Assembly: GCF_057098645.1 (NCBI RefSeq) | Contig: NZ_CM169472.1 | Length of the DNA: 64,000 nt | Strand: one strand, 5' to 3' | Shown here: in pieces, positions 39,605-64,000 of the stretch | Position numbering within the stretch: the first letter of the stretch is position 1 | Layout of the letters: each line of letters opens with the position of its first letter | The notes under the pieces: model-generated | Seen by the model: the letters and a program-made list of their open reading frames with translations, nothing else | Databases searched by the model: none | Told to the model about the DNA's origin: nothing | Position numbers and translations under genes: made by a program

Positions 39605-39645
39605 AATGGCCACCGTTTATCTAACAGTGGCCATTTGATTTGAGG
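39605..39645 (+). terminator. Putative terminator after yhhT
   Basis: Perfect 9 bp inverted repeat AATGGCCAC / GTGGCCATT followed by TTGATTTG. Confidence 0.4.
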
Positions 39646-39964: not shown

Positions 39965-40354
39965 ATGAGACATTACATGAAATGGTTTGCGGCTATTGCT
40001 GTTGTGGGTGCTTTAGCGGGTTGCGCGCGTACTGCGCCAATTGTTCAGGTTCACTCAACCGTCAGCGCTGGTCATACCCAGGAACAAGTGAAAAAAGCGA
40101 TTCTGAAAGCTGGCGTTGAACGCAAATGGATTATGTCCGAAGCCGGACAAGGCATAATTAAAGCACGTCAACAGTCACGCGATCATTCAGCGGAAATACG
40201 CATTAACTACACGGCATCCAGCTACGATATCAATTATGAAAATAGCCAGAACCTACAAGCGTCAGGCGGACAAATTCATAAAAACTACAATCGCTGGGTC
40301 CGCAATCTCGACAAAGATATTCAACTGAATTTGTCAGCGGGCGCAGATTTATAA
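39965..40354 (+). CDS. Small lipoprotein, first gene of the APE-like cluster
   Basis: 129 aa; signal peptide with lipobox (VVGALAGCA); preceded by about 380 bp of AT-rich leader. Confidence 0.55.
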   Translation: MRHYMKWFAAIAVVGALAGCARTAPIVQVHSTVSAGHTQEQVKKAILKAGVERKWIMSEAGQGIIKARQQSRDHSAEIRINYTASSYDINYENSQNLQASGGQIHKNYNRWVRNLDKDIQLNLSAGADL

Positions 40355-40413
40355 TTCTTCCTAAAGTCGGGCCGTTGCGGTCCGATAATAATTTAATTCC
40401 CTCTTAACAGGTT

Positions 40414-41481: not shown

Positions 41482-41521
41482 TCGTCACTTAATAATTTTG
41501 GTTTACCGCGGGCGCGCGTTG

Positions 41522-43062: not shown

Positions 43063-43294
43063 AAACCTCATCATCAGCACCCTCAATCTGGACGAGTTGA
43101 CGCCTGATGATATCGATACCGACGCGCCGCTGTTTGGCGACGGTTTAGGGCTGGACTCTATCGATGCCCTGGAACTGGGACTGGCAGTAAAAAATGAGTA
43201 CGGCATCGTGCTCTCTGCGGAAAGCGAAGAGATGCGTCAGCACTTTTTCTCCGTCGCCACTCTGGCCTCTTTCATTGCTGCGCAACGTGCCTGA
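43037..43294 (+). CDS. Acyl carrier protein 1
   Basis: 85 aa; phosphopantetheine attachment motif GLDSIDALEL. Confidence 0.8.
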   Translation: MQALYLEIKNLIISTLNLDELTPDDIDTDAPLFGDGLGLDSIDALELGLAVKNEYGIVLSAESEEMRQHFFSVATLASFIAAQRA

Positions 43295-43305
43295 GGAAAG
43301 CCATC

Positions 43306-43557
43306 ATGACAGAACAACAAACCGTCTATCAGGAAGTCTCAGCCCTGCTGGTTAAGCTGTTTGAAATCGATCCGCAGGACATCAAACCTGAAGCGCGCCT
43401 GTACGAAGATCTGGAACTGGACAGCATCGACGCCGTTGACATGATTGTGCACCTGCAAAAGAAAACCGGTAAGAAAATCAAGCCGGAAGAGTTTAAAGCC
43501 GTGCGTACAGTCCAGGATGTCGTCGAGGCTGTAGAACGCCTGCTACAAGAAGCCTGA
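43306..43557 (+). CDS. Acyl carrier protein 2
   Basis: 83 aa; motif LELDSIDAVDM. Confidence 0.8.
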   Translation: MTEQQTVYQEVSALLVKLFEIDPQDIKPEARLYEDLELDSIDAVDMIVHLQKKTGKKIKPEEFKAVRTVQDVVEAVERLLQEA

Positions 43558-43561
43558 TCTG

Positions 43562-44143
43562 ATGTCGGGCATTCGCTCGCTACCGATGATTAAGCTGCTG
43601 ACTGGATTATTGCTGCTCGCCTGGCCGTTTGTGATTTGGTTTGGCTTAGCGCATAACGGCCTGCACTGGCTGTTACCGCTAATGGCGTTGCTGCTTTTGT
43701 TGCGTCTGCGCCAGACCCGTCGCCAGGCGGGGCCTTTACAAGCCGTCACGCAACTCGTCGCTGTCGTGGGCATCGCATTATGTGTCGCCAGCTTTATGTT
43801 GAAAACGCACCAGCTACTGCTGTTTTACCCGGTAGTGGTTAACGCGGTCATGCTGGCGGTTTTTGGCGGTTCGCTGTGGTCGGCAATGCCGATAGTTGAG
43901 CGGCTGGCGCGGTTGCAGGAGCCAGACCTCCCGGAAAAGGGCGTGCGCTATACCCGCCACGTCACGCAAATCTGGTGCGGCTTTTTCATCATTAACGGTG
44001 GAATTGCCCTCTTTACCGCGCTTTATGCCGATATGTCGTTATGGACCGCCTGGAACGGCATGATTGCTTATTTGTTGATGGGGACGTTAATGGCTGGTGA
44101 ATGGCTGCTGCGCCGTCAGGTGATGAAAAGAGATCGCGCATGA
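43562..44143 (+). CDS. Polytopic membrane protein of unknown function
   Basis: 193 aa with several hydrophobic helices; conserved position after the ACP pair. Confidence 0.55.
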   Translation: MSGIRSLPMIKLLTGLLLLAWPFVIWFGLAHNGLHWLLPLMALLLLLRLRQTRRQAGPLQAVTQLVAVVGIALCVASFMLKTHQLLLFYPVVVNAVMLAVFGGSLWSAMPIVERLARLQEPDLPEKGVRYTRHVTQIWCGFFIINGGIALFTALYADMSLWTAWNGMIAYLLMGTLMAGEWLLRRQVMKRDRA

Positions 44144-45501
44144 AGCAGACCTTACCGCTTGCACGCTGGCTGACTGCGCCACGCCCTGATGACACACCCA
44201 TTGCGTGGCTGGACGAAAGCTTCTGGACGCTGGGCGATTTGCGTCACGATGTCGCGCAACTTATCTGCCGCTTGCAGCAACAGCCGGGTGAACGCTGGGC
44301 GCTGTGCTTTGAGAACAGCTATCTGTTTATCGTTGCCCTGCTCGCCACGCTACACGCCGGAAAAACGCCGGTGCTTCCGGGGCATAACCGTGTTATCCAG
44401 CTTAACGAGCAACGTGAACTTTTTGATGGTGTGCTTAGCGACAGCGAACTTAACTGGCAAGGTTCATTGCTGTTGGTAGCAAGTTCTCCACAAATCGCGA
44501 CACAATCCTTCACCTTTTCCGCTATAGCGCCAGAGGCTTTTATCGAGCTGTTTACCTCTGGTTCCACGGGACAGCCGAAGCGGGTGATTAAACCTGTTCA
44601 TTTGCTGGACCGTGAAGCAGAACTGCTGGCTGAACGATTAGGCGCACGTCTGGCGGGTTGTCGTGTCGTCGGTTCCGTATTGCCGCAGCATTTGTACGGC
44701 CTGACTTTTCGCGTTTTCCTGCCAATGGCGCTGGGATTACCCCTACATGCCGCCATGCTCTGGTATGTCGAACAGTTTGCCGCGTTGAGTCATCAGCATC
44801 GCTATATCTTCATCAGCAGCCCGGCATTTTTGAAGCGTCTGGATACACAGATTTCCCCGCCCCCCGTTCAGGTGCTTCTCTCTGCTGGCGGTGAGCTACC
44901 GTGGCAGGACGTACAACACACCGCGAACTGGCTGCGCGTCTGGCCTGATGAAATCTACGGCAGCACGGAAACCGGCGTCATTGCCTGGCGTTACCGCGAT
45001 CAGGAGCAACGCCGCTGGCAGCCCTTCCCCGGTATGCAGTTCCGGGCCGAAGGGAATGCATTTCGTCTCTTTTCCCCGCTGATGACGGAAGATAACGGCC
45101 TGTTACTCGACGATATCTTACAGTTTAGCGAAGATGGTCAGTTCCATCTGATGGGGCGTCGCGGACGCATCGTTAAGATTGAAGAAAAACGTATTTCGTT
45201 GCAGGAAGTGGAACAACGTCTGCTGGCACTGGACGGTATTCGCGAGGCGGCGGCAGTTCCTGTTACGCGCGGCGGGCGTCAGAGCATAGGCGTTTTGCTG
45301 GTGCTGGATGACGAAGCTCGTCTGCAATGGCAGAACGGCGGCGGGCATAGCCAGGAAATGACCTGGCGGCGATTACTACGCCCGACGCTGGAGCCTGTTG
45401 CCATTCCGCGTTACTGGCGCGTTATTGATGAAATGCCAGTAAACAGTATGAACAAGCGTGTCTATGCGCAATTACAGGAGTTATTTCATGAAGCCCCATG
45501 A
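44140..45501 (+). CDS. AMP-dependent synthetase/ligase (acyl/aryl-adenylating enzyme)
   Basis: AMP-binding motif TSGSTGQPK; ATG 44140 overlaps previous stop (ATGA). Confidence 0.8.
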   Translation: MKQTLPLARWLTAPRPDDTPIAWLDESFWTLGDLRHDVAQLICRLQQQPGERWALCFENSYLFIVALLATLHAGKTPVLPGHNRVIQLNEQRELFDGVLSDSELNWQGSLLLVASSPQIATQSFTFSAIAPEAFIELFTSGSTGQPKRVIKPVHLLDREAELLAERLGARLAGCRVVGSVLPQHLYGLTFRVFLPMALGLPLHAAMLWYVEQFAALSHQHRYIFISSPAFLKRLDTQISPPPVQVLLSAGGELPWQDVQHTANWLRVWPDEIYGSTETGVIAWRYRDQEQRRWQPFPGMQFRAEGNAFRLFSPLMTEDNGLLLDDILQFSEDGQFHLMGRRGRIVKIEEKRISLQEVEQRLLALDGIREAAAVPVTRGGRQSIGVLLVLDDEARLQWQNGGGHSQEMTWRRLLRPTLEPVAIPRYWRVIDEMPVNSMNKRVYAQLQELFHEAP

Positions 45502-45841
45502 AATCGAGCGCCATCAGGCACAAGCGAATCACCTTGAGATTGTTTTGCATCTCAGGGCAGATCTGTTCTGGTTTCGCGGCCATTTTGCCGTGCAACCATT
45601 ACTCCCTGGCGTGGCACAAATCGACTGGGCAATGAGTTACGCGCTTGCCCTGCTCGCGCCTGGCTGGCGTTTTCACTCCATTCAGAACATAAAATTTCAG
45701 TCTCCGTTGCTGCCGGAAAACCGCGTCACGCTCACGCTTAACTGGCAGGAAGATCGCCAGATTCTGAGCTTTAGCTATCAGCGTCACGACGGTGACGCCC
45801 GCCACACCGCCAGTAGCGGGAAGATCCGCCTATGTCGGTAA
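45488..45841 (+). CDS. Hotdog-fold 3-hydroxyacyl-ACP dehydratase-like protein
   Basis: 117 aa from ATG 45488 (MKPHEIERHQ...); overlaps the ligase stop. Confidence 0.5.
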   Translation: MKPHEIERHQAQANHLEIVLHLRADLFWFRGHFAVQPLLPGVAQIDWAMSYALALLAPGWRFHSIQNIKFQSPLLPENRVTLTLNWQEDRQILSFSYQRHDGDARHTASSGKIRLCR

Positions 45842-47508
45842 ACTTTTCGCCCTGCGTGTTGATCCCCTGCTACAACCACGGCGCGATGATGCCGGGCGTG
45901 CTGGCGCGTCTTAAGCCATTTAATCTGCCCTGTATTGTGGTGGACGACGGCAGCGATGCCGCCACGCAACAGCAACTGGACAGTCTGCTTGCCGAGCAGC
46001 CTGGCGTGACTTTAATTCGCCTGGCAGAAAACGCAGGCAAAGGCGCGGCGGTGATGTACGGCTTACAGGCGGCGAAAGACGCGGGCTTCAGCCATGCGGT
46101 GCAGGTGGATGCTGACGGTCAACATGCGATTGAAGATATCCCCAAACTGCTGGCAGTCGCTGAACAACACCCTGCGGCGCTGATCTCCGGCCAGCCAATT
46201 TACGATGACTCCATCCCCCGCTCACGGCTTTACGGGCGCTGGGTCACCCACGTCTGGGTATGGATCGAAACGCTCTCCCTGCAACTGAAAGACAGCATGT
46301 GCGGTTTTCGCGTTTATCCGGTTGCGCCGACGCTGCAACTGGCAAAACACGCCACCATCGGCAAGCGGATGGATTTCGACACTGAAGTGATGGTGCGCCT
46401 CTACTGGCAGGGAAACACCAGCTATTTCGTGCCGACCCGCGTCACCTATCCACTGGACGGGCTTTCACATTTTGATGCCCTGAAAGATAACGTCCGCATC
46501 TCGCTCATGCACACGCGTCTGTTTTTCGGCATGTTGCCGCGTATTCCTTCACTGCTGATGCGCCGCTCTTCCAGCCACTGGGCGCGGCAGAGTGAAGTGA
46601 AAGGATTATGGGGAATGCGCCTGATGCTGCTGGTCTGGCGTCTGCTGGGAAGAACGGCGTTTAGCGCGCTGCTTTACCCGGTGGTGGGCGTCTACTGGCT
46701 CACTGCTTCTCGTGCGCGCAAAGCGTCGCAAGACTGGCTCGCCCGTGTACGACAGCATCAACCACAGGCGGCAAAACTCAACAGCTATCAGCACTTTCTA
46801 CGTTTCGGTAATGCCATGCTCGACAAAATCGCCAGCTGGCGCGGCGAGCTACAACTGGGGCGTGATGTGCTGTTTGCGCCAGGCGCAGAAGCGGCGCTTG
46901 ACGTCCGCGATCCGCGCGGCAAATTGCTGCTGGCCTCGCATCTTGGCGATGTGGAAGTGTGCCGGGCGCTGGCAAAAATTCAGGGCTACAAAACCATTAA
47001 CGCGCTGGTGTTTAGCGAAAACGCCCAACGCTTTAAACAGATAATGCAGGAGATGGCCCCGCAGGCTGGTATCAACCTGATGCCGGTAACAGATATCGGC
47101 CCGGAAACCGCCATCCTGCTAAAAGATAAGCTGGATAACGGCGAATGGGTGGCGATTGTCGGCGACCGCATCGCCGTCAACCCGCAACGCGGCGGCGACT
47201 GGCGCGTCTGCTGGAGTCCGTTTATGGGCCAGCCTGCGCCTTTCCCACAGGGGCCATTTATTCTCGCGTCTATTTTGCGCTGCCCGGTGAATCTGATTTT
47301 CGCCCTACGCCAGCACGGCAAGCTGCATATTCACTGCGAAACCTTTGCCGACCCGCTGCTGTTGCCGCGTGGCGAACGCCAACAGGCGCTGCAAAACGCT
47401 ATCGACCACTACGCCGCGCGTCTGGAACATTACGCGCTCCAGTCGCCCCTCGACTGGTTTAATTTTTTCGATTTCTGGCAACTGCCGGAAATTCAGGACA
47501 AGGAGTAA
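45832..47508 (+). CDS. Fusion protein: family-2 glycosyltransferase N-domain plus lipid-A-type (LpxL/HtrB-like) acyltransferase C-domain
   Basis: 558 aa; N-terminus CVLIPCYNHG...VVDDGSDA (GT2 signature); C-terminal half resembles lauroyl/myristoyl acyltransferases. Confidence 0.65.
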   Translation: MSVNFSPCVLIPCYNHGAMMPGVLARLKPFNLPCIVVDDGSDAATQQQLDSLLAEQPGVTLIRLAENAGKGAAVMYGLQAAKDAGFSHAVQVDADGQHAIEDIPKLLAVAEQHPAALISGQPIYDDSIPRSRLYGRWVTHVWVWIETLSLQLKDSMCGFRVYPVAPTLQLAKHATIGKRMDFDTEVMVRLYWQGNTSYFVPTRVTYPLDGLSHFDALKDNVRISLMHTRLFFGMLPRIPSLLMRRSSSHWARQSEVKGLWGMRLMLLVWRLLGRTAFSALLYPVVGVYWLTASRARKASQDWLARVRQHQPQAAKLNSYQHFLRFGNAMLDKIASWRGELQLGRDVLFAPGAEAALDVRDPRGKLLLASHLGDVEVCRALAKIQGYKTINALVFSENAQRFKQIMQEMAPQAGINLMPVTDIGPETAILLKDKLDNGEWVAIVGDRIAVNPQRGGDWRVCWSPFMGQPAPFPQGPFILASILRCPVNLIFALRQHGKLHIHCETFADPLLLPRGERQQALQNAIDHYAARLEHYALQSPLDWFNFFDFWQLPEIQDKE

Positions 47509-47511
47509 AGG

Positions 47512-47934
47512 GTGCTTAACGATCCCCGATTTACCGCTGAAGTCGAGCTGACCATTCCCTTTCACGACGTCGATATGATGGGCGTGGCCTGGCACGGTAA
47601 CTATTTTCGCTACTTTGAAGTGGCCCGCGAGGCGCTGCTCAACCAGTTCAATTACGGCTATCGGCAGATGAAAGAGTCCGGTTATTTGTGGCCAGTGGTC
47701 GATGCGCGGGTGAAATATCGCCACGCCCTCACCTTTGAGCAACGCATCCGCGTGCGTGCGCATATCGAAGAGTTCGAAAACCGTCTGCGGATTGGCTATC
47801 AGATTTTCGATGCCGAAACGGGCAAACGCGCCACCACCGGATACACCATTCAGGTCGCGGTCGACGAGCAAAGTCGCGAACTGTGCTTTGTCAGCCCCGA
47901 TATTCTGTTTGAACGCATGGGAGTCAAATCATGA
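47512..47934 (+). CDS. Hotdog-fold acyl-CoA/ACP thioesterase (4HBT/YbgC-like)
   Basis: 140 aa; motif HDVDMMGVAWHGNYFRYFE. Confidence 0.7.
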   Translation: MLNDPRFTAEVELTIPFHDVDMMGVAWHGNYFRYFEVAREALLNQFNYGYRQMKESGYLWPVVDARVKYRHALTFEQRIRVRAHIEEFENRLRIGYQIFDAETGKRATTGYTIQVAVDEQSRELCFVSPDILFERMGVKS

Positions 47935-48536
47935 AATTTTTACCGCTGCTGGCGCTGCTGATTAGCCCGTTTGTGAGCGCCCTGAGCCTGGACGATCTTC
48001 AGCAACGCTTTACCGAACAGCCGGTGATCCGCGCCCATTTCGATCAAACCCGGACGATTAAAGATCTGCCGCAGCCGCTGCGATCTCAGGGCCAGATGTT
48101 GATCACCCGCGACCAGGGGCTGTTGTGGGATCAAACCTCACCGTTCCCCATGCAACTATTACTGGACGATAAACGCATGGCGCAGGTGATCAACGGTCAG
48201 CCGCCGCAAATCATCACGGCAGAAAATAACCCGCAGATGTTCCAGTTTAACCACCTGCTGCGCGCGCTGTTCCAGGCCGATCGCAAAGTGCTGGAACAAA
48301 ACTTCCGCGTCGAATTTGCCGACAAAGGCGAAGGCCGCTGGACGCTGCGCCTGACGCCGACCACCACGCCACTGGATAAAATTTTCAACACCATCGATCT
48401 CGCCGGGCAAACCTATCTGGAGAGCATTCAGCTTAATGATAAACAGGGCGATCGCACCGATATTGCTCTTACCCAACATCAACTGACACCAGCGCAACTG
48501 ACCGATGACGAACGCCAACGTTTTGCCGCCCAGTAA
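47931..48536 (+). CDS. LolA-like outer-membrane lipoprotein carrier protein
   Basis: 201 aa; signal peptide MKFLPLLALLISPFVSA; size and pattern of LolA/LolB-fold proteins. Confidence 0.55.
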   Translation: MKFLPLLALLISPFVSALSLDDLQQRFTEQPVIRAHFDQTRTIKDLPQPLRSQGQMLITRDQGLLWDQTSPFPMQLLLDDKRMAQVINGQPPQIITAENNPQMFQFNHLLRALFQADRKVLEQNFRVEFADKGEGRWTLRLTPTTTPLDKIFNTIDLAGQTYLESIQLNDKQGDRTDIALTQHQLTPAQLTDDERQRFAAQ

Positions 48537-50823
48537 ACGCCCCGCGCTGTTATGGGGGCTAGTCTGCCTGGTCATGGCGGCGGCGTTGCTGATCCTGCTG
48601 CCGCAATCACGGCTGAACAGTAGCGTGCTGGCTATGTTACCCAAACAGGCGATGGGCGATATTCCCCCAGCGCTGAATGACGGCTTTATGCAGCGTCTGG
48701 ACCGCCAACTGGTGTGGCTGGTCAGCCCCGGTAAAGAGGCTAATCCCAGGGTCGCTCAGGAGTGGCTGACGCAGCTGCAAAAATCCGCTGCGCTTGGCGA
48801 CATTAAAGGGCCAATGGATGCCGCCAGCCAGCAGGCGTGGGGAGCGTTTTTCTGGCAGCACCGCAACGGCCTGATTGACCACGACACCCGCGCCCGCCTG
48901 CAAAACGGCGGCGAAGCGCAGGCGCAGTGGATCCTCTCCCAGCTTTATTCTGCATTCTCCGGGGTAAGCGGCAAGGAGCTGCAAAACGATCCGCTGATGT
49001 TAATGCGCGGCTCGCAGCTGGCGATGGCAAAAAATGGCCAGCGTTTGCGGCTGATGGACGGCTGGCTGGTGACGCAGGATCCCCAGGGCAACTACTGGTA
49101 TCTGCTGCACGGCGAACTGGCGGGATCGTCGTTTGATATGCAGCAAACCCACCAGCTCATCACGACCCTGAATACGCTGGAAAAGGATCTGAAAACGCGT
49201 TACCCACAGGCGCAGTTGCTCTCGCGCGGCACGGTATTTTACAGCGATTACGCCAGTCAACAGGCGAAGCAGGATATCTCAACCCTGGGCGTGGCAACGC
49301 TGCTGGGGGTGATATTGCTGATTGTGGCGGTGTTCCGCTCTTTGCGTCCGTTGCTGCTTTGCATGATTTCCATCGGCATCGGCGCGCTGGCGGGAACGGT
49401 CGCCACATTGTTGATTTTCGGTGAATTACACCTGATGACGCTGGTGATGAGCATGAGCGTTATCGGCATTTCCGCTGACTACACACTCTATTATCTCACC
49501 GAGCGGATGGTGCACGGCAACGACGTTTCGCCGTGGCAAAGCCTGGCGAAAGTACGCAATGCCTTGCTACTGGCGCTGCTCACCACCGTGGCGGCATATC
49601 TGATTATGATGCTCGCCCCCTTCCCCGGTATCCGCCAGATGGCGATTTTTGCCGCCATCGGGTTGAGCGCCTCTTGTCTGACCGTCCTGTTCTGGCATCC
49701 GTGGCTGTGCCGTGGCCTGCCGGTGCGCCCGGTTCCGGCGATGGCGCTGATGCTACGCTGGCTGGCAGCGTGGCGGCGCAATAAAAAACTGTCGCTGGGT
49801 CTGCCCGTCGCGCTGGCGCTGTTTTCGCTGGCGGGGATGTCAATGCTGCGCGTCGATGACGATATCTCGCAGTTACAGGCGCTGCCGCAGCATATTCTGG
49901 CGCAGGAGAAAGCCATTACCGCCCTGACCGGACAAAGCGTCGATCAAAAATGGTTTGTAGTTTACGGCGACTTCCCACAGCAAACATTGCGGCGGCTGGA
50001 GACATTTACCACCTCACTGGAGAAAGCGAAAAAAGACGGCCTTATCAGCAACTACCGCACCATTCCGCTGAACTCCCTGGCGCGGCAGGAGGAAGATTTA
50101 GACCTGCTGAAAACGGCGGCCCCGACAGTAACAAAAGCGCTGCAAAATGCCGGGCTGACGGCAGTGAACCCGGATCTCAACGCCATGCCAGTGAACGTTG
50201 ATGAATGGCTGGCAAGCCCCGCCAGTGAAGGCTGGCGTCTGCTGTGGCTGACGCTGGAAAACGGCGAAAGCGGCGTACTGGTGCCGGTTGAAGGGGTTAA
50301 AAGTAGCGCGTTGATGCAGGAAATCGCCACATATTACCCTTGCGGCATTGCCTGGGTTGATCGCAAAAGCACCTTTGATGAATTGTTCGCACTTTACCGC
50401 TACGTCTTAACCGGCTTGTTGCTGGTGGCGCTGGCAGTGATTGCCTGCGGCGCAGTGGCCCGTCTCGGCTGGCGCAAAGGGCTTATCAGCCTGGTGCCTT
50501 CGGTGCTTTCGCTGGGCTGTGGTCTGGCGGTGCTGGCGATGAGCGGGCAGGCGGTGAATCTCTTTTCGCTGCTGGCGCTGGTGCTGGTGCTTGGCATCGG
50601 TATCAACTACACGCTGTTTTTCAGTAATCCGCGCGGTACACCGTTAACTTCGCTACTGGCGATCGCGCTGGCAATGCTCACCACCTTGCTGACGCTGGGA
50701 ATGTTGGTATTCAGCGCCACCCAGGCCATCAGCAGTTTTGGCATTGTGCTGGTGAGCGGTATTTTCACCGCCTTCCTGCTTTCGCCGCTGGCTATGCCCG
50801 ATAAAAAGAGAACAAAAAAATGA
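48505..50823 (+). CDS. MMPL/RND-superfamily exporter
   Basis: 772 aa; two blocks of TM helices separated by soluble loops; exact start uncertain (overlaps previous gene by 32 nt). Confidence 0.7.
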   Translation: MTNANVLPPSKRPALLWGLVCLVMAAALLILLPQSRLNSSVLAMLPKQAMGDIPPALNDGFMQRLDRQLVWLVSPGKEANPRVAQEWLTQLQKSAALGDIKGPMDAASQQAWGAFFWQHRNGLIDHDTRARLQNGGEAQAQWILSQLYSAFSGVSGKELQNDPLMLMRGSQLAMAKNGQRLRLMDGWLVTQDPQGNYWYLLHGELAGSSFDMQQTHQLITTLNTLEKDLKTRYPQAQLLSRGTVFYSDYASQQAKQDISTLGVATLLGVILLIVAVFRSLRPLLLCMISIGIGALAGTVATLLIFGELHLMTLVMSMSVIGISADYTLYYLTERMVHGNDVSPWQSLAKVRNALLLALLTTVAAYLIMMLAPFPGIRQMAIFAAIGLSASCLTVLFWHPWLCRGLPVRPVPAMALMLRWLAAWRRNKKLSLGLPVALALFSLAGMSMLRVDDDISQLQALPQHILAQEKAITALTGQSVDQKWFVVYGDFPQQTLRRLETFTTSLEKAKKDGLISNYRTIPLNSLARQEEDLDLLKTAAPTVTKALQNAGLTAVNPDLNAMPVNVDEWLASPASEGWRLLWLTLENGESGVLVPVEGVKSSALMQEIATYYPCGIAWVDRKSTFDELFALYRYVLTGLLLVALAVIACGAVARLGWRKGLISLVPSVLSLGCGLAVLAMSGQAVNLFSLLALVLVLGIGINYTLFFSNPRGTPLTSLLAIALAMLTTLLTLGMLVFSATQAISSFGIVLVSGIFTAFLLSPLAMPDKKRTKK

Positions 50824-51404
50824 TCAAACCCACATTCTGGCGAGCGTTTGCCCTGACCGCTACGCTTATCCTCACCGGCTGTAGCCACTCGCAACCAGAA
50901 CAGGAAGGCCGCCCGCAAGCGTGGCTGCAACCTGGCTCGCGCATCACGCTGCCTGCGCCGGGGATTTCACCCGCCGTCAATTCCCAGCAACTGTTGACCG
51001 GCAGCTTCAACGGCAACACCCAGTCGCTGCTAGTGATGCTTAACGCCGACGACCAGAAAATCACCCTTGCCGGACTGTCGTCGGTCGGCATTCGCCTGTT
51101 TCTGGTGACCTACGATGCGCAAGGGCTACGCGCCGAGCAATCCATCGTCGTCCCACAGTTACCGCCCGCAAGTCAGGTACTGGCTGACGTGATGCTCAGC
51201 CACTGGCCGATTAGCGCCTGGCAACCGCAACTTCCCGCAGGATGGACACTTCGCGACAACGGTGACAAACGCGAGCTGCGTAACGCCAGCGGCAAACTGG
51301 TCACGGAAATAACCTATCTGAATCGCAAGGGCAAACGCGTGCCAATCAGCATTGAGCAGCATGTCTTTAAATACCACATCACCATTCAATACTTAGGTGA
51401 CTGA
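50820..51404 (+). CDS. Lipoprotein of unknown function (DUF3261-like)
   Basis: 194 aa; lipobox LTGCSHS. Confidence 0.55.
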   Translation: MIKPTFWRAFALTATLILTGCSHSQPEQEGRPQAWLQPGSRITLPAPGISPAVNSQQLLTGSFNGNTQSLLVMLNADDQKITLAGLSSVGIRLFLVTYDAQGLRAEQSIVVPQLPPASQVLADVMLSHWPISAWQPQLPAGWTLRDNGDKRELRNASGKLVTEITYLNRKGKRVPISIEQHVFKYHITIQYLGD

Positions 51405-51405
51405 T

Positions 51406-52575
51406 ATGATTTATATTTCCGCCGTCGGCATGATCAACGCCCTGGGAAATAACCTTGACGATATCGCAGCCAACCTGACTCGCGGTGTCGCCCCCGGAAT
51501 GCGCCCACGCGCAGGCTGGTTGCAGGGGCATCCGCAGGCGGTCCTGGCTGGCGTGGATGGCGAGCTTCCGCTTATCCCGGAAAAATTCGCTGCGCATCGC
51601 TCGCGCAACAATCAGATCCTGCTGGCGGCGCTGGCGCAGCTCCAGCCGCAGGTTGATGACGCTATCGCGAAATATGGTCGCCAGCGCATCGCGATTGTAC
51701 TTGGCACCAGCACCTCCGGCCTGCATGAAGGCGACACGCACGTTAACCTGCGCACCCACGGGCAGCCGAGCACCACATGGCACTACGCGCAACAGGAACT
51801 CGGCGATCCGTCGCGTTTTCTCAGCCACTGGCTGGCGCTCGACGGCCCGGCCTATACCCTTTCAACCGCCTGCTCTTCCAGCGCCAGAGCGATAATCAGC
51901 GGGCGCAGGCTTATCGAAGCGGGGCTGGTCGATGCCGCCATTGTGGGTGGCGCAGACACCCTGAGCCGGATGCCGATTAACGGTTTTCACAGCCTCGAAT
52001 CGCTGTCGCCAACCTTATGTCAGCCGTTTGGTCGTGACCGCGCAGGTATCACCATTGGTGAAGGGGCGGGGCTAATGCTGCTGACCCGGGAACCGCAGCC
52101 CATCGCGTTGCTGGGCGTTGGTGAATCGAGCGACGCTTACCATATTTCAGCCCCGCATCCGCAGGGCGAAGGAGCGATCCGCGCTATTAATCAGGCGCTG
52201 ACCGATGCGCAGCTTACGCCAGATGACGTCGGCTATATCAACCTGCACGGCACCGCCACACAACTCAACGATCAGATTGAATCAATGGTGGTTAACGCCC
52301 TGTTTGGCGAACGCGTACCGTGCAGCTCCACCAAACATTTGACCGGACACACGCTGGGCGCAGCGGGCATTACCGAGGCGGCAATTAGTATGTTGATTTT
52401 ACAGCGTGATTTACCGCTGCCCGCTCAGGACTTCAGCCTGTCGCCGCGCGATCCCACGCTGCCACCGTGTGGCATTATCGAAAAACCGCAGCCGCTGGCA
52501 CGTCCGGTGATCCTGTCCAATTCCTTCGCCTTTGGCGGCAATAACGCCAGCATTCTGCTCGGGAGGGTTTCGTGA
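51406..52575 (+). CDS. Beta-ketoacyl-ACP synthase (active KS)
   Basis: ORF track 51397..52575; start moved to ATG giving MIYISAVGMINALGN; active-site Cys in TACSSS, His motifs HGTATQ and GHTLGAAG. Confidence 0.8.
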   Translation: MIYISAVGMINALGNNLDDIAANLTRGVAPGMRPRAGWLQGHPQAVLAGVDGELPLIPEKFAAHRSRNNQILLAALAQLQPQVDDAIAKYGRQRIAIVLGTSTSGLHEGDTHVNLRTHGQPSTTWHYAQQELGDPSRFLSHWLALDGPAYTLSTACSSSARAIISGRRLIEAGLVDAAIVGGADTLSRMPINGFHSLESLSPTLCQPFGRDRAGITIGEGAGLMLLTREPQPIALLGVGESSDAYHISAPHPQGEGAIRAINQALTDAQLTPDDVGYINLHGTATQLNDQIESMVVNALFGERVPCSSTKHLTGHTLGAAGITEAAISMLILQRDLPLPAQDFSLSPRDPTLPPCGIIEKPQPLARPVILSNSFAFGGNNASILLGRVS

Positions 52576-53036
52576 GCCACTATTTATCCCCCGGCGCTTA
52601 TCTGCCCCACGACGCGCCCATGTTACTGCTGGAAGACGTGGTGAGCGTCAGCGATGACAGCGCGGTGTGCCGCGTAACGGTCTCGCCCAGCGGCGTACTG
52701 GCACCGTTCCTCGACCCGGACGGCAATCTACCCGGCTGGTTTGCCCTTGAACTGATGGCGCAAACCGTCGGTGTCTGGTCTGGCTGGCATCGCCGCCAGC
52801 AGGGCAAAAACAGTATTGAGTTAGGGATGATACTGGGCGCGCGTGAATTGCTTTGCACCACTGGCATTCTGCCCGCAGGCCAGACGCTGACCATTACCGT
52901 CAAACTGCTGATGCAAGACGATCGCTTCGGCAGTTTTGAGTGCAGCATCAACGACGGCGAGGCGACGGGCCGCATTAACACCTTCCAGCCGACCGCGGAA
53001 GAACTTACCACCCTGTTTCAACAAGGAGCGTCCTGA
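52572..53036 (+). CDS. Hotdog-fold dehydratase
   Basis: 154 aa; GTG start overlapping the KS stop. Confidence 0.55.
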   Translation: MSHYLSPGAYLPHDAPMLLLEDVVSVSDDSAVCRVTVSPSGVLAPFLDPDGNLPGWFALELMAQTVGVWSGWHRRQQGKNSIELGMILGARELLCTTGILPAGQTLTITVKLLMQDDRFGSFECSINDGEATGRINTFQPTAEELTTLFQQGAS

Positions 53037-53767
53037 TGAGTCGTTCAGTTCTGGTTACTGGTGCCAGCAAAGGCATTGGTCGCGCCATCGCCTGCCAACT
53101 GGCGGCAGACGGCTTTAACATTGGCGTTCACTATCACCGTGACGCCACAGGCGCTCAGGAAACGCTGAATGCCATTGTCGCCAACGGGGGTAACGGGCGT
53201 TTGCTCAGTTTCGACGTCGCAAACCGCGAACAGTGTCGGGAAGTGCTGGAGCATGAGATCGCGCAACACGGTGCCTGGTACGGCGTGGTCAGTAACGCCG
53301 GGATCGCCCGCGATGCCGCTTTTCCGGCTTTAAGCGATGACGACTGGGATGCGGTGATCCACACCAACCTCGACAGTTTCTACAACGTCATTCAGCCGTG
53401 CATTATGCCGATGATCGGCGCACGCCAGGGTGGGCGCATCATCACGCTATCCTCGGTTTCCGGCGTAATGGGCAATCGCGGCCAGGTGAATTACAGCGCT
53501 GCCAAAGCCGGAATTATCGGCGCAACAAAAGCGCTGGCTATCGAACTCGCGAAGCGCAAAATCACCGTCAACTGCATCGCGCCGGGGCTTATTGATACCG
53601 GGATGATCGAAATGGAAGAGAGCGCTCTGAAAGAGGCAATGTCGATGATCCCCATGAAACGTATGGGCCAGGCGGAAGAAGTTGCCGGGCTTGCCAGTTA
53701 TTTAATGTCTGATATTGCGGGTTACGTCACCCGCCAGGTTATTTCCATCAACGGAGGGATGTTATGA
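53036..53767 (+). CDS. 3-oxoacyl-ACP reductase (FabG-like SDR)
   Basis: TGASKGIGRAIA Rossmann motif and YSAAKAG catalytic motif. Confidence 0.85.
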   Translation: MSRSVLVTGASKGIGRAIACQLAADGFNIGVHYHRDATGAQETLNAIVANGGNGRLLSFDVANREQCREVLEHEIAQHGAWYGVVSNAGIARDAAFPALSDDDWDAVIHTNLDSFYNVIQPCIMPMIGARQGGRIITLSSVSGVMGNRGQVNYSAAKAGIIGATKALAIELAKRKITVNCIAPGLIDTGMIEMEESALKEAMSMIPMKRMGQAEEVAGLASYLMSDIAGYVTRQVISINGGML

Positions 53768-54993
53768 CACGTCGCGTAGTGATTACAGGAATGGGCGGCG
53801 TGACTGCCTTTGGTGAAAACTGGCAGGACGTTTCTGCACGCTTACTGGCGTATGAAAATGCGGTGCGCAAAATGCCGGAGTGGCAGGTCTACGATGGCCT
53901 GCACACCCTGCTTGGCGCGCCTGTTGATGATTTCACGCTACCGGAGCACTACACCCGCAAGCGTATCCGTGCGATGGGCCGCGTGTCGCAAATGTCGACC
54001 CGTGCCAGCGAGCTGGCGTTAGAGCAGGCAGGGTTGATTGGCGATCCGATATTAACCAGCGGCGAAACGGGCATTGCGTACGGTTCATCGACCGGCAGTA
54101 CCGGCCCGGTAAGCGAGTTCGCCACCATGCTGACGGAAAAGCACACCAATAACATCACTGGCACCACCTATGTGCAGATGATGCCGCACACCACCGCCGT
54201 TAATACTGGCCTCTTTTTCGGCCTGCGCGGGCGGGTGATCCCAACCTCCAGCGCCTGTACTTCCGGCAGCCAGGCAATCGGTTATGCGTGGGAAGCCATT
54301 CGCCACGGTTATCAAACGGTGATGGTTGCTGGTGGTGCCGAAGAGTTATGTCCTTCAGAAGCAGCGGTATTTGATACGCTTTTCGCCACCAGCCAGCACA
54401 ATGATGCGCCGAAAACCACACCTTCACCGTTCGATGAAAACCGCGACGGGCTGGTGATTGGTGAAGGCGCAGGTACGCTCATTCTCGAAGAACTGGAGCA
54501 CGCCAAAGCGCGCGGCGCGACCATTTACGGTGAAATCGTCGGCTTTGCGACGAACTGCGACGCGGCACATATTACCCAGCCGCAGCGCGAAACCATGCAG
54601 TATTGTATGGAGCAATCGCTGAAAATCGCCGGGTTAAGCGCACAAGATATCGGCTATATTTCAGCGCATGGTACGGCGACCGATCGCGGTGATATGGCAG
54701 AAAGTCTGGCGACAGCAACCATTTACGGTGATAATGTGCCGCTCTCCTCGCTGAAAAGTTATTTTGGTCATACGCTTGGTGCCTGTGGCGCGCTCGAAGC
54801 CTGGATGAGTCTGCAAATGATGCGCGAAGGTTGGTTTGCGCCTACGCTAAACCTGAATAAACCAGACCCGAATTGTGGCGCGCTGGATTACATCATGCAT
54901 GAAGCCCGCAAGGTTGATTGTGAGTTTTTGCAGAGTAACAACTTTGCCTTTGGCGGCATTAATACATCCATCATCATTAAACGTTGGCCCTGA
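53764..54993 (+). CDS. Beta-ketoacyl-ACP synthase II-like (FabF-like)
   Basis: 409 aa; Cys in SSACTSGS, His motifs HGTATD and GHTLGACGA. Confidence 0.85.
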   Translation: MTRRVVITGMGGVTAFGENWQDVSARLLAYENAVRKMPEWQVYDGLHTLLGAPVDDFTLPEHYTRKRIRAMGRVSQMSTRASELALEQAGLIGDPILTSGETGIAYGSSTGSTGPVSEFATMLTEKHTNNITGTTYVQMMPHTTAVNTGLFFGLRGRVIPTSSACTSGSQAIGYAWEAIRHGYQTVMVAGGAEELCPSEAAVFDTLFATSQHNDAPKTTPSPFDENRDGLVIGEGAGTLILEELEHAKARGATIYGEIVGFATNCDAAHITQPQRETMQYCMEQSLKIAGLSAQDIGYISAHGTATDRGDMAESLATATIYGDNVPLSSLKSYFGHTLGACGALEAWMSLQMMREGWFAPTLNLNKPDPNCGALDYIMHEARKVDCEFLQSNNFAFGGINTSIIIKRWP

Positions 54994-54994
54994 T

Positions 54995-55582
54995 ATGTAT
55001 CGGATAGTTCTGGGGAAAGTTTCGACCTTAAGCGCAGCTCCACTGCCACCGGGTTTACGCGAGCAAGCACCGCAAGGTCCACGACGCGAACGCTGGCTGG
55101 CGGGGCGTGCATTGCTTTCGCACACGCTTTCCCCGCTACCGGAGATCATCTATGGCGAACAAGGCAAACCTGCATTTGCGCCGGAAACGCCGCTATGGTT
55201 CAACTTAAGCCATAGCGGTGACGATATCGCTCTGCTGTTGAGTGATGAAGGCGAAGTCGGCTGCGATATCGAAGTGATTCGCCCGCGCGCCAACTGGCGC
55301 TGGCTGGCGAACGCCGTATTCAGCCTCGGGGAACACGCTGAGATGGACGCCGTGCATCCTGATCAGCAACTGGAAATGTTCTGGCGCATCTGGACGCGCA
55401 AAGAAGCCATCGTTAAACAGCGTGGTGGCAGCGCCTGGCAAATCGTCAGCGTAGACAGCACCTATCACTCCTCGCTGTCAGTCAGCCATTGTCAGCTAGA
55501 AAATTTAAGCCTGGCGATCTGCACCCCCACCCCCTTTACGCTCACCGCCGACAGTGTGCAATGGATCGATTCAGTTAACTGA
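54995..55582 (+). CDS. acpT: 4'-phosphopantetheinyl transferase (holo-ACP synthase AcpT)
   Basis: ORF track 54875..55582; start moved to MYRIVLGKVSTLSAAPLPPGL; PPTase motifs (FNLSHSGD, WTRKEAIVK). Confidence 0.85.
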   Translation: MYRIVLGKVSTLSAAPLPPGLREQAPQGPRRERWLAGRALLSHTLSPLPEIIYGEQGKPAFAPETPLWFNLSHSGDDIALLLSDEGEVGCDIEVIRPRANWRWLANAVFSLGEHAEMDAVHPDQQLEMFWRIWTRKEAIVKQRGGSAWQIVSVDSTYHSSLSVSHCQLENLSLAICTPTPFTLTADSVQWIDSVN

Positions 55583-55627
55583 TCCGCCCACCCGACTGCC
55601 CATCTATTGATCCAGAACAGGTAATCA

Positions 55628-55655
55628 GTATGACGAATACTTAAAATCGTCATAC
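55628..55655 (+). promoter_or_regulatory. NikR operator in the nikA promoter
   Basis: GTATGA-N16-TCATAC dyad (GTATGACGAATACTTAAAATCGTCATAC) 38 nt upstream of nikA. Confidence 0.7.
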
Positions 55656-55692
55656 TTATTTCCGCCATCTATTTTAATCCATTGGGGTTACC

Positions 55693-57267
55693 ATGCTCTC
55701 CACACTCCGCCGCACTCTATTTGCGCTGCTGGCTTGTGCGTCTTTTATCGTCCATGCCGCTGCGCCAGATGAAATTACCACCGCCTGGCCGGTGAATGTC
55801 GGGCCACTAAACCCGCACCTTTACACGCCTAACCAGATGTTCGCCCAGAGCATGGTTTATGAACCGCTGGTGAAATATCAGGCTGATGGTTCGGTGATCC
55901 CGTGGCTGGCAAAAAGCTGGACTCATTCAGAAGATGGTAAAACCTGGACCTTCACCCTGCGTGATGACGTGAAATTCTCCAACGGCGAACCGTTTGATGC
56001 AGAGGCAGCGGCAGAAAACTTCCGCGCAGTGCTCGATAACCGTCAACGTCACGCCTGGCTGGAGCTGGCAAACCAGATTGTTGATGTCAAAGCACTCAGT
56101 AAAACAGAGCTGCAAATCACCCTGAAAAGCGCCTACTATCCTTTCCTGCAAGAACTGGCCCTGCCGCGCCCTTTCCGCTTTATCGCCCCCTCGCAGTTTA
56201 AAAACCATGAAACCATGAACGGAATTAAAGCGCCGATTGGCACCGGGCCGTGGGTTTTGCAGGAATCGAAACTGAATCAGTACGATGTCTTCGTCCGTAA
56301 CGAAAACTACTGGGGCGAAAAGCCGGCGATTAAGAAGATCACTTTTAACGTCATCCCGGACCCGACGACCCGCGCGGTAGCGTTTGAAACTGGCGATATC
56401 GACCTGCTGTACGGAAACGAAGGGTTATTACCGCTCGATACCTTCGCCCGCTTTAGCCAGAACCCGGCTTACCATACCCAACTGTCACAGCCGATCGAAA
56501 CCGTGATGTTGGCGCTTAATACCGCCAAAGCCCCCACCAATGAGCTGGCAGTACGTGAAGCTCTTAATTACGCGGTAAACAAAAAATCGCTGATTGATAA
56601 CGCGTTGTATGGCACCCAGCAGGTCGCCGACACCCTGTTTGCCCCTTCTGTGCCCTACGCCAACCTCGGCCTGAAACCGCGCCAGTACGATCCGCAGAAA
56701 GCGAAAGCGTTGCTGGAAAAAGCCGGTTGGACGCTGCCTGCGGGCAAAGACATCCGCGAGAAAAATGGTCAGCCGCTGCACATTGAACTTTCGTTCATCG
56801 GCACCGATGCGTTAAGTAAATCGATGGCGGAAATCATTCAGGCTGATATGCGCCAGATTGGCGCAGATGTCTCGCTGATTGGCGAAGAAGAGAGCAGTAT
56901 CTATGCGCGTCAGCGCGACGGTCGTTTTGGCATGATTTTCCACCGCACCTGGGGCGCGCCATACGACCCACACGCCTTCCTGAGTTCAATGCGCGTACCG
57001 TCGCACGCTGACTTCCAGGCACAGCAAGGATTAGCCGACAAGCCGCTGATTGATAAAGAGATCGGCGAAGTGCTGGCGACACATGACGAAACGCAACGTC
57101 AGGCGCTGTATCGCGACATTCTGACCCGTCTGCATGACGAGGCGGTTTATCTGCCTATCAGTTACATCTCAATGATGGTGGTATCAAAACCGGAGCTGGG
57201 TAACATCCCCTACGCGCCGATCGCCACCGAAATTCCGTTCGAACAGATTAAACCGGTGAAACCTTAA
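55693..57267 (+). CDS. nikA: Nickel ABC transporter periplasmic binding protein
   Basis: 524 aa with signal peptide; first gene of nikABCDER. Confidence 0.9.
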
Positions 57268-61212: not shown

Positions 61213-61959
61213 ATGAAATCATTAAGTAAGTCGTCACAAATACCGCTCTATCAACAAGTGGTGGAGTGGATAAGAGAAAGTATTTATACCGGAGATCTGG
61301 TGGAAGACGATCGCATCCCTTCGGAATACCAGATTATGGATATGCTGGAAGTCAGTCGGGGAACCGTTAAAAAAGCGGTCGCCCAACTGGTAAAAGAAGG
61401 CGTGTTGATTCAGGTCCAGGGCAAGGGAACATTTGTCAAAAAAGAGAACGTGGCCTATCCGTTAGGTGAAGGATTATTGTCATTCGCGGAATCGCTGGAA
61501 AGCCAGAAAATACATTTTACCACTGAAGTTATTACGTCACGGATTGAACCGGCTAATCGTTATGTGGCAGAGAAATTAAGAATAACGCCCGGTCAGGATA
61601 TTCTTTACCTTGAACGCTTACGCTCAATTGGTGATGAAAAAGCGATGCTGATAGAGAACCGTATCAATATTGAGCTATGCCCCGGTATTGCGGAAATCGA
61701 TTTTAATCAACACAATTTATTTCCAACAATAGAAAGTTTGTCGCAAAGAAAAATTCGTTACTCGGAAAGTCGCTATGCCGCGCGATTAATTGGTAATGAA
61801 CGTGGTCATTTTTTAGATATCAGTGAAGACGCACCCGTTTTGCATCTGGAGCAGTTAGTCTTTTTCTCCCGAGGATTACCCATTGAGTTTGGCAACGTCT
61901 GGTTAAAAGGAAATAAATATTATCTTGGCACCGTACTGCAACGGCGGGAAGTGAGTTAA
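61213..61959 (+). CDS. GntR-family (HutC/UTRA subfamily) transcriptional regulator
   Basis: ORF track 61204..61959; N-terminal winged HTH (PSEYQIMDMLEVSRGTVKKAVAQLVKEGVL) plus C-terminal effector domain. Confidence 0.75.
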   Translation: MKSLSKSSQIPLYQQVVEWIRESIYTGDLVEDDRIPSEYQIMDMLEVSRGTVKKAVAQLVKEGVLIQVQGKGTFVKKENVAYPLGEGLLSFAESLESQKIHFTTEVITSRIEPANRYVAEKLRITPGQDILYLERLRSIGDEKAMLIENRINIELCPGIAEIDFNQHNLFPTIESLSQRKIRYSESRYAARLIGNERGHFLDISEDAPVLHLEQLVFFSRGLPIEFGNVWLKGNKYYLGTVLQRREVS

Positions 61960-61983
61960 GTACACTTTTTTAAGAGGAATAAA

Positions 61984-62457
61984 ATGCAAGGCATACACTT
62001 TCAGGAAAATTATATTCAACGACTTCCGGCAGGGTTAAGCGTTGAACAGATCATCCGTCAGTTAGCGCAACCGTTGGTTGCCGCCGAGCTGGTCGTCCCT
62101 GATTTTGCCGATCACGTACTGAAACGTGAGGCGACGTACCCAACGGGGCTGCCTACCGAACCACCGTGCGTCGCTATTCCGCACACGGACCATAAACATG
62201 TCAGGCACAATGCAATTGCCGTCGGCATCCTGCCGGAACCGGTAGAGTTTGCCGATATGGGCGGCGATCCTGACCCCGTACCTGTCAGGGTGATTTTTTT
62301 GCTCGCCTTAAGCGAAAGTAATAAACAATTAAATGCCCTGGGCTGGATTATGGAAATGATTCAGGATACGCCCTTTATGCAAGCCCTGCTTGCGATGGAA
62401 ACAACAGAAATACACACAGTAATCTTAAACAAAATGAAAGAACGAGGTGAAATATGA
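61984..62457 (+). CDS. PTS EIIA component, mannitol/fructose (type 2) class, galactitol-like
   Basis: 157 aa; phosphorylatable His in AIPHTDHKH. Confidence 0.7.
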   Translation: MQGIHFQENYIQRLPAGLSVEQIIRQLAQPLVAAELVVPDFADHVLKREATYPTGLPTEPPCVAIPHTDHKHVRHNAIAVGILPEPVEFADMGGDPDPVPVRVIFLLALSESNKQLNALGWIMEMIQDTPFMQALLAMETTEIHTVILNKMKERGEI

Positions 62458-62735
62458 GTCAAACCATTTTATTTGTCTGCGCCACGGGTATTGCCACATC
62501 CACGGCGGTAACAGAAAAAGTCATGGAATATTGTAAAGAGCACGCTCTTAACGTCAATTATTCCCAAACCAACGTTGCCTCTTTACCTGGAAATACTGAT
62601 GGCGTAGCACTGGTAGTCTCAACGACTAAAGTGCCTTATGAACTCGACGTCCCGGTAGTTAACGGCTTGCCGATTATTACCGGTATTGGCGAAGAGAAAG
62701 TACTGGCGCAAATTGTTTCGATCCTTAAAAATTAA
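62454..62735 (+). CDS. PTS EIIB component, galactitol-type
   Basis: 93 aa; N-terminal phosphocysteine motif ILFVCATGIATS. Confidence 0.75.
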   Translation: MSQTILFVCATGIATSTAVTEKVMEYCKEHALNVNYSQTNVASLPGNTDGVALVVSTTKVPYELDVPVVNGLPIITGIGEEKVLAQIVSILKN

Positions 62736-62811
62736 TTAATAATAATTAATTTCAACCCACTCCATCAGGCGCTAACGCGAGGTGCGCTCTCGCCTGAAAA
62801 AGAGGTTTATT

Positions 62812-64000
62812 ATGAACGATATCGCGCATACCCTCTATAATATTGTGCAATATATATTGGGATTTGGGCCGACGGTAATGTTGCCGTTGGTGTTATTTAT
62901 TCTTGCTCTCTGTTTTAAAGTAAAACCCGCTAAAGCCTTACGTTCGTCATTAACAGTCGGCATTGGTTTTGTCGGTATTTATGCCATTTTCGATATTCTG
63001 ACCAGCAATGTCGGGCCAGCGGCCCAGGCGATGGTTGAACGCACCGGAATTAATTTACCGGTGGTAGATTTAGGCTGGCCGCCGCTTTCCGCTATTACAT
63101 GGGGTTCGCCAATTGCCCCGTTTGTTATTCCCCTGACCATTCTGATTAACGTGGCGATGCTGGCGTTAAATAAAACCCGTACCGTTGACGTAGATATGTG
63201 GAACTACTGGCATTTTGCCCTTGCTGGTACGTTGGTTTATTACAGCACCGGCAGCCTGTTCTTTGGTTTGCTGGCGGCGGCGATTGCTGCGGTGGTAGTA
63301 CTTAAACTCGCCGACTGGTCTGCGCCACTGGTACAAAAATACTTTGGACTGGAAGGGATCTCATTGCCGACGCTCTCTTCGGTGGTGTTCTTCCCGGTCG
63401 GTCTGCTGGTCGACAAAATCATCGACCATATCCCCGGCCTCAATCGTATTCATATCGACCCGGAAACCGTACAGAAAAAGTTTGGCATCTTCGGCGAACC
63501 GATGATGGTTGGCACTATTCTGGGCATACTGCTCGGCGTGATTGCAGGATACGATTTCAAAAAAGTGTTGCTGCTTGGCATCAGCATTGGCGGTGTGATG
63601 TTCATCCTGCCACGCATGGTTCGCATCCTGATGGAAGGTTTATTACCGCTGTCTGAAGCCATTAAAAAGTATCTCAATGCCAAATACCCTGACCGTGACG
63701 ATCTCTATATCGGACTGGATATCGCCGTTGCCGTAGGTAATCCGGCGATTATCTCCACCGCCCTGCTGCTAACGCCAATCTCGGTCTTTATCGCGTTTGT
63801 CCTCCCAGGTAATGAAGTCCTGCCGCTTGGCGACCTTGCCAACCTGGCGGTAATGGCGTCGATGATTGCTTTAGCCAGCCGTGGCAATATTTTCCGCACC
63901 GTTCTGGCGGCGATCCCGGTGATTATTGCCGACCTGTGGATTGCGACTAAAATCGCACCGTTTATTACCGGCATGGCGAAAGACGTTAACTTCAAATTTG
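62812..64000 (+). CDS. PTS EIIC permease, galactitol family (5' part; continues beyond window end)
   Basis: My own translation from ATG 62812 is open to position 64000 (MNDIAHTLYNIVQYILGFGPTVMLPLVLFILALCFKV...); not in the ORF track because no stop lies inside the window. Confidence 0.75.
   Translation, partial: MNDIAHTLYNIVQYILGFGPTVMLPLVLFILALCFKVKPAKALRSSLTVGIGFVGIYAIFDILTSNVGPAAQAMVERTGINLPVVDLGWPPLSAITWGSPIAPFVIPLTILINVAMLALNKTRTVDVDMWNYWHFALAGTLVYYSTGSLFFGLLAAAIAAVVVLKLADWSAPLVQKYFGLEGISLPTLSSVVFFPVGLLVDKIIDHIPGLNRIHIDPETVQKKFGIFGEPMMVGTILGILLGVIAGYDFKKVLLLGISIGGVMFILPRMVRILMEGLLPLSEAIKKYLNAKYPDRDDLYIGLDIAVAVGNPAIISTALLLTPISVFIAFVLPGNEVLPLGDLANLAVMASMIALASRGNIFRTVLAAIPVIIADLWIATKIAPFITGMAKDVNFKF

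Follow-up and report, generated by a model that had tools for sequence, protein, structure and literature searches.

The acpT gene of an O145-type Escherichia coli as the very likely dedicated phosphopantetheinyl transferase of an adjoining aryl-polyene cluster that K-12 has lost

The acpT gene (positions 54995-55582, + strand) very probably encodes the dedicated Sfp-type phosphopantetheinyl transferase (PPTase) of the aryl-polyene (APE) pathway, the 18 genes of which, apeA-apeR, lie just upstream (39977-54993, + strand) in the window, by which we mean the whole 64,000-nucleotide stretch of DNA analyzed. That AcpT is the PPTase of the O-island 138 carrier proteins, and that this island has been lost from K-12, is already known and was published in 2006. 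To this our comparisons add that the linkage of acpT to the cluster appears to be ancestral, that the K-12 state appears to be an old scar common to other species, and that orphan acpT genes appear to be under purifying selection. The practical value of the result is for annotation: O-island 138, described as "fatty-acid-like," ought to be annotated as an aryl-polyene cluster of which acpT is the 19th gene.

The open reading frame at 54995-55582 starts at an ATG and encodes 195 amino acids. We compared the segment from 54500 to 56100 with public genomes and found it to be 100% identical to that of E. coli O145 strain RM9872, in which the RefSeq name for the gene at 54995-55582 is acpT. The protein matched the NCBIfam AcpT equivalog model NF007676 over its full length (model positions 1-195 of 195) with 396 bits, above the curated cut-off of 174, and Pfam PF01648 with 44 bits against a cut-off of 25. 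Both the Mg2+ triad Asp-Xxx-Glu and the W-x-x-K-E-(A/S)-x-x-K motif were present. The first of these, G-C-D-I-E (residues 89-93; 55259-55273, + strand), was aligned by phmmer to the GIDIE of Sfp (1QR0 and 4MRT), which placed AcpT residues D91 and E93 opposite the Sfp Mg2+ ligands D107 and E109. The second, W-T-R-K-E-A-I-V-K (residues 133-141; 55391-55417, + strand), placed E137 and K141 opposite Sfp E151 and K155. A length of 195 amino acids is compatible with the monomers of the Sfp fold, which are two-lobed pseudo-dimers of approximately 200 to 240 amino acids, the sequence alignment itself covering residues 55 to 146 only. No residue differs between AcpT of the window and AcpT of O157:H7 Sakai, and there is a single difference, T65M, from the protein of K-12 MG1655.

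A longer, GTG-initiated reading frame of 235 amino acids (54875-55582) was discarded as an artefact; it overlaps apeR out of frame, and NF007676 and all homologues begin at the ATG at 54995. Downstream of acpT, the sole obvious hairpin was a perfect inverted repeat, GTATGA-N16-TCATAC, at 55628-55655, between acpT and nikA. It corresponds to the NikR operator described for the nik promoter.

The cluster upstream of acpT, equivalent to O-island 138 of O157:H7, was delimited from RefSeq annotation and tblastn colinearity, and we took the ape gene names from PMC8253772. Its 18 genes were colinear by tblastn with the CFT073-type cluster in genome L003. With Pfam and NCBIfam support, they comprised a methyltransferase, a KS/CLF pair, two ACPs, the adenylating enzyme ApeH, two dehydratases, a KR, export genes (LolA/MMPL/DUF3261), and acyl- and glycosyltransferases; the RefSeq names in the cluster include ApeP and ApeI family dehydratases. 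Of the two carrier proteins, ApeE (43037-43294, + strand) has 85 amino acids and matched PF00550 (E = 5.7e-8) and NF006617, while ApeF (43306-43557, + strand), an acyl carrier protein of 83 amino acids, matched PF00550 (E = 2.6e-13) and NF003757 (146 bits). Each has a D-S-I motif with the serine for attachment, Ser41 in ApeE (43157-43159) and Ser40 in ApeF (43423-43425). The last gene of the cluster, apeR (53764-54993, + strand), encodes a beta-ketoacyl-ACP synthase (NF006587, 778 bits; Pfam ketoacyl-synt N- and C-terminal domains). Compared with their O157:H7 Sakai counterparts, ApeE and ApeR show no difference, and ApeF differs in one residue. On the left, annotation and locus comparison identify the flanking gene as yhhT (38536-39585, + strand), which adjoins acpT directly in cluster-less genomes. 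The GC content of the cluster (47 to 60%, with an AT-rich leader of 380 nt) against that of the flanks (52 to 58%) is not diagnostic.

Several existing records bear on how this region is read. An RpoS array paper carries Z4851-Z4861 as genes of O-island 138, and acpT is absent from its list. The legacy names in O157:H7 Sakai (L090 13663-15602; ECs_4330 and ECs_4331) are misleading, since apeG appears there as "DNA gyrase subunit B" and apeH as "surfactin synthetase"; the actual products are a membrane protein (apeG) and the APE-pathway enzyme that adenylates 4-hydroxybenzoate (apeH). Farther to the right, past nikR, the window (61214-64000; L001 23715-29324) carries genes for a GntR regulator, PTS IIA/IIB/IIC, an FGGY kinase, HPr, and a class II aldolase and, after these, hicAB.

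The first-pass annotation had described the PPTase gene as the next gene after an operon with two dedicated ACPs, and this description was accurate. The apeR stop codon (TGA, 54991-54993) and the acpT ATG at 54995 are separated by 1 nt (TGA-t-ATG), and the PF00550 matches lie at 43037-43557. The same annotation placed acpT immediately downstream of its likely ACP substrates, which is right for the operon as a whole but not for the ACP genes themselves, since these are 11.4 kb and 12 genes upstream of acpT. The genes from apeA to acpT, 19 in all, share the + strand and have junctions of -32 to +68 nt. A promoter and terminator scan of 39400-56000 gave counts equal to the shuffled expectation, with none between apeR and acpT, and is uninformative about transcription; no convincing Shine-Dalgarno sequence was seen upstream of the acpT ATG. 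Given the 1-nt spacing and its conservation in other genomes, we infer that acpT would be cotranscribed with the ape genes and is probably translationally coupled to apeR.

We propose that acpT would be expressed as the 19th and final cistron of the apeA-apeR-acpT array and that its product would move the 4'-phosphopantetheine of CoA to Ser41 of ApeE and Ser40 of ApeF, converting both from the apo to the holo form. ApeH would then load 4-hydroxybenzoate on ApeE, and the ketosynthases would extend the polyene. Published evidence that AcpT modifies the ACPs of this island in O157:H7, which the first-pass annotation had mentioned, can be traced to De Lay and Cronan (2006, Mol Microbiol 61:232; pmid 16824108), who, as cited in PMC8253772, reported that AcpT of O157:H7 EDL933 activates the ApeE/ApeF homologues in vitro. 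Phosphopantetheine transfer to apo-ApeE and apo-ApeF would carry over to the window from this literature on EDL933, the window proteins being 0 to 1 amino acid different from those of Sakai. As to the product, a cell-bound aryl polyene pigment has been shown for the CFT073 cluster (PMC8253772); the O157/O145-type cluster is known here from its genes, and its ApeH is 66% identical.

A comparison of the yhhT-acpT junction with that of K-12 had been proposed along with the statement that K-12 acpT was orphaned by deletion of the island, and the comparison agreed with that statement. In MG1655, yhhT and acpT are separated by 54 nt, the final 19 of which, cATTAAACGTTGGCCCTGA, are identical to the apeR 3' terminus at 54975-54993 (+ strand) of the window. 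Junction alignments showed that the 15.4-kb segment at 39586-54974 (+ strand) of the window is replaced in K-12 by the other 35 nt. The megablast breakpoint fell at query position 476 (window position 54975) in all 17 of the cluster-less rows sampled (H3-H19). A B2-type copy of apeR at another chromosomal site has the same terminal codons (ATTAAGCGCTGGCCCTGA) and then runs into unrelated DNA, and since it ends in these codons at an unrelated locus, the 19 nt belong to apeR. Because K-12 keeps this apeR stub, the difference reflects a deletion in K-12 and not an insertion in O157; the title of De Lay and Cronan (2006; pmid 16824108) likewise says deletion.

The resemblance of the K-12 spacer to Citrobacter apeR extends over approximately 33 nt, with one indel. 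The 35 nt that precede the stub, ATGAGGCGACAAGTGATACGATACGCACTTTCATTTTCC, are a K-12-specific filler: they are absent from the window at up to three mismatches, and in blastn-short searches across the loci they matched cluster-less Escherichia only. We considered whether the 5' half of the spacer (C. freundii type) might also be derived from apeR and rejected the idea, as the matches in apeR were 18 to 19 nt with E values of 0.04 to 0.16 and the gapped alignments were unconvincing. Judged by alignment, an apeR origin can safely be assigned to the 3' 19 to 33 nt of the spacers only. At the cluster boundaries, direct repeats of at least 7 nt were absent and the sole inverted match was 8 nt; divergence from MG1655 showed no increase beside the junction, at 1.2% for each of yhhT and acpT.

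The scar extends beyond K-12. It was found in approximately 4,850 of 5,426 complete E. coli genomes (the breakpoint being seen in 17 of 17 sampled rows), the same 54-nt scar was present in E. albertii, E. whittamii, and another Escherichia species, and recognizably homologous spacers of 51 to 54 nt occurred in Salmonella enterica subsp. arizonae/diarizonae and in one Citrobacter group. Since the scar recurs in the Escherichia, Salmonella, and Citrobacter groups just named, loss of the cluster is, on the evidence of these spacers, old and widespread and no K-12-specific event. In K-12 and most other E. coli strains, an old deletion took away the 15.4-kb cluster and left acpT with its 19-nt stub of apeR. 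Both Escherichia and Citrobacter contain cluster-bearing as well as scarred alleles (scar loci L005-L008, L012, L014, L017, L027, and L028). The O157/O145-type cluster may be a retained ancestral allele, that is, a long-lived polymorphism, or may have been regained by recombination.

We scanned one genome per bacterial species for relatives of AcpT and kept 80 loci, all of them from Enterobacteriaceae. apeR was directly upstream of acpT in 52 of the 80 loci, yhhT was directly upstream, with the cluster absent, in 27, and the remaining locus had a partial cluster deletion. The gap between apeR and acpT was 1, 2, or 3 nt in every one of the 52 cluster-bearing loci, which came from at least 12 named genera (Citrobacter, Raoultella, Kosakonia, Klebsiella, Enterobacter, Leclercia, Lelliottia, Silvania, Pluralibacter, Kluyvera, Cedecea, and Superficieibacter, with one Escherichia species). 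Because this gap is 1 to 3 nt in all 52 loci across genera, the apeR-acpT linkage is, as judged from gene order, ancestral in Enterobacteriaceae and tightly conserved, unlike a chance adjacency. The order yhhT-[apeA-R]-acpT would be the ancestral one in this family. One contig, labelled "Chryseobacterium sp. 18061" (L067), carries a typical Enterobacteriaceae ape-acpT locus that is nearly the same as that of "Citrobacter sp. 18056" (L069); either a wrong label or contamination is the probable cause.

Cluster-less loci differed in what was left of apeR. Codons 367 to 408 are left in two Enterobacter loci (L038 and L046) and codons 361 to 409 in a Leclercia locus (L053), while an Enterobacter MAG (L063) has a decayed apeR stub with stop codons, another Enterobacter locus (L044) has approximately 20 nt left, and in a further Enterobacter group the spacer measures 103 nt and contains no stub. 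In E. asburiae INSAq146 (L072, 5655-10000), yhhT is followed by apeA-apeE, then by the second half of apeR (codons 218 to 408) and acpT. This partial deletion runs from apeF to the middle of apeR and captures the cluster in the course of being lost. Counting the Escherichia/Salmonella/Citrobacter type, the remnants indicate that there have been at least six separate deletions of the cluster, with acpT spared each time.

Within E. coli, acpT was present in 5,425 of the 5,426 complete genomes; the cluster was joined to it in 569, and ApeE/ApeF genes were found at any site in 824. Copies with 90 to 95% identity occurred in 255 of the 5,426 genomes, and the one inspected (L003) was at a second site, amid IS, toxin, and pseudogene debris, with no PPTase gene after apeR. 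Orphan acpT was found in approximately 4,600 E. coli genomes without ape ACP genes. Pairwise dN/dS was 0.07 to 0.15 for cluster-less acpT versus 0.10 to 0.19 for cluster-linked acpT, values that are indicative only, given the dependence among pairs and a dS close to saturation. Activation of the cluster ACPs cannot fully explain the persistence of acpT, because the gene is kept in nearly all of these genomes, of which only 824 encode ApeE/ApeF, and because selection on orphan genes is no weaker than on linked ones.

In an Enterobacter clade (sichuanensis, soli, wuhouensis, cloacae, ludwigii, and mori), AcpT has GCS(L/I/V)E instead of GCDIE, i.e., D91S. The variant occurred in approximately 33 of the 120 protein clusters listed, and in many of these the Glu of W-x-x-K-E (E137) has likewise given way to Gly, Lys, or Asp. 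Every locus of this clade that we examined lacked the cluster and had the order yhhT, approximately 104 nt, acpT, and a convergent arn operon (acpT at 10001-~10620 in L076, L078, and L083 and at 4001-4603 in L084-L088; proteins P0001-P0027). The Ser-variant acpT reading frames were intact, with dN/dS of 0.06 to 0.13 over codons 1 to 180 and bootstrap upper bounds of at most 0.22; the 3' ~50 nt of acpT, which overlap the convergent arn gene in Enterobacter, were left out of the calculation. In the group II PPTases tested, residues 1 and 3 of the triad are indispensable (PMC4103896). Judging from these replacements and rates, the Enterobacter Ser variant looks like a catalytically impaired PPTase homologue that is kept by selection.

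Could the adjacency of acpT and the cluster be coincidental, with acpT an old core gene of unrelated role and a mobile 15-kb island that, in the O157/O145 lineage, happened to land between this gene and yhhT? acpT is indeed core in E. coli and the cluster at this site accessory, and the related cluster amid IS remnants at a second site (255 genomes, of which L003 was inspected) implies that the cluster can move. However, the reading is contradicted by the scar: K-12 keeps the last 19 nt of apeR, and the apeR at the other locus has the same end. The spacing of 1 to 3 nt in 52 loci and at least 12 named genera also argues against it, as do the several independent deletions with differing breakpoints, some with apeR stubs of 126 to 147 nt, and the absence of direct repeats at the boundaries, and we regard coincidence as extremely improbable. 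It also seems very unlikely that in the cell AcpS or EntD carries out most of the activation of ApeE and ApeF, leaving AcpT redundant for the pathway. The argument for this comes from the CFT073 cluster, which is without a PPTase gene of its own and of which the 18 genes give pigment in the K-12-derived strain Top10, the pigment being abolished by deletion of apeE (PMC8253772). Since that cluster pigments Top10 and needs apeE to do so, ApeE must be activated by some K-12 PPTase. AcpS or EntD would be compatible with the result, the literature names AcpT "holo-ACP synthase 2" with AcpS-like activity, and we found no report, in those parts of the literature accessible to us, of an acpT knockout in the Top10/CFT073-cluster system. 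On the other hand, acpT is present in all of the E. coli hosts used, and orphan AcpT is the obvious candidate for the activation of ApeE in Top10. Activation of the ApeE/ApeF homologues by AcpT in vitro has been reported (De Lay and Cronan 2006, as cited in PMC8253772), the tight linkage has been kept across genera, and the essential Asp was lost, in our protein search, in one clade only, every examined locus of which is without the cluster at the site.

Our preferred reading thus remains that AcpT is the dedicated PPTase of the APE pathway. It is possible, if on balance doubtful, that selection in the majority of genomes maintains AcpT for a task other than the activation of ApeE/ApeF, either on another substrate or in a noncatalytic LpxC/YejM envelope role, with APE service being one role. 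Retention of orphan acpT in approximately 4,600 E. coli genomes, with a dN/dS no higher than that of linked acpT, is consistent with such a function, and so are the intact D91S genes of Enterobacter, in which E137 has often become Gly, Lys, or Asp at a dN/dS of 0.06 to 0.13, when set beside the essentiality of triad residues 1 and 3 in tested group II PPTases (PMC4103896). In addition, overproduction of AcpT suppresses yejM/lapC mutants independently of catalysis (De Lay and Cronan 2008, as cited in PMC7240159 and PMC10607373). However, this is an overexpression phenotype that may be a titration artefact, an overload of FtsH by AcpT having been suggested (PMC7240159). The pairwise dN/dS values are moreover nonindependent with dS near saturation, orphan status was judged at the acpT locus, with a genome-wide count for E. 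coli only, and the overlap with arn in Enterobacter affects the 3' ~50 nt of acpT, excluded from dN/dS. We therefore suggest only tentatively that AcpT has a second, catalysis-independent function that keeps acpT after its ACP substrates are gone. If it does, this function would tie to the activity-independent suppression of yejM/lapC in the LpxC/LPS control circuit. Purifying selection on orphan acpT despite lost catalytic residues would offer a handle on the retention of acpT in K-12 and on the YejM interaction.

Among known PPTases, the only solved relative of AcpT by sequence was Sfp of Bacillus subtilis (1QR0 and 4MRT), the archetype of the group II PPTases, with E = 6e-9. The motifs FNLSHSG, GCDIE, and WTRKEAIVK of AcpT align with FN(I/L)SHSG, G-x-D-I-E, and W-x-x-K-E-x-x-x-K of Sfp, but the alignment is limited to residues 55 to 146, and AcpT has 195 amino acids, compared with 224 in Sfp. 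The sfp gene adjoins the srf operon that Sfp serves. Sfp is promiscuous; AcpT is reportedly narrow in specificity and a poor modifier of AcpP. EntD, AcpS, and AcpT all transfer phosphopantetheine to carrier proteins, EntD being a group II enzyme that, like AcpT, is linked to its own cluster and AcpS a group I enzyme that serves AcpP. The identity between EntD and AcpT is only 28% (PMC4103896).

The AcpT/O-island 138 system of O157:H7 EDL933 (De Lay and Cronan 2006) is at the same locus as the one described here, flanked in both cases by yhhT (left) and nikA (right). The two show no functional difference, the host here being an O145-type strain. APE_Ec of CFT073 (Cimermancic 2014; Johnston 2021, PMC8253772) has the same 18 genes in the same order, and most of its proteins are 94 to 100% identical. 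When the CFT073-type copy in L003 (12070-27092) was compared with 39977-54993 of the window, identity was lower in ApeA (64%), ApeG (81%), ApeH (66%), and ApeI (71%). This low-identity mosaic is centred on ApeH, which activates the starter, and may reflect either use of another starter unit or recombination of the segment. In strain 25DN, apeP is frameshifted. In CFT073-type strains, the cluster is elsewhere and acpT is at the scarred yhhT-nikA site, where it would have to act in trans, and such strains would depend on its doing so.
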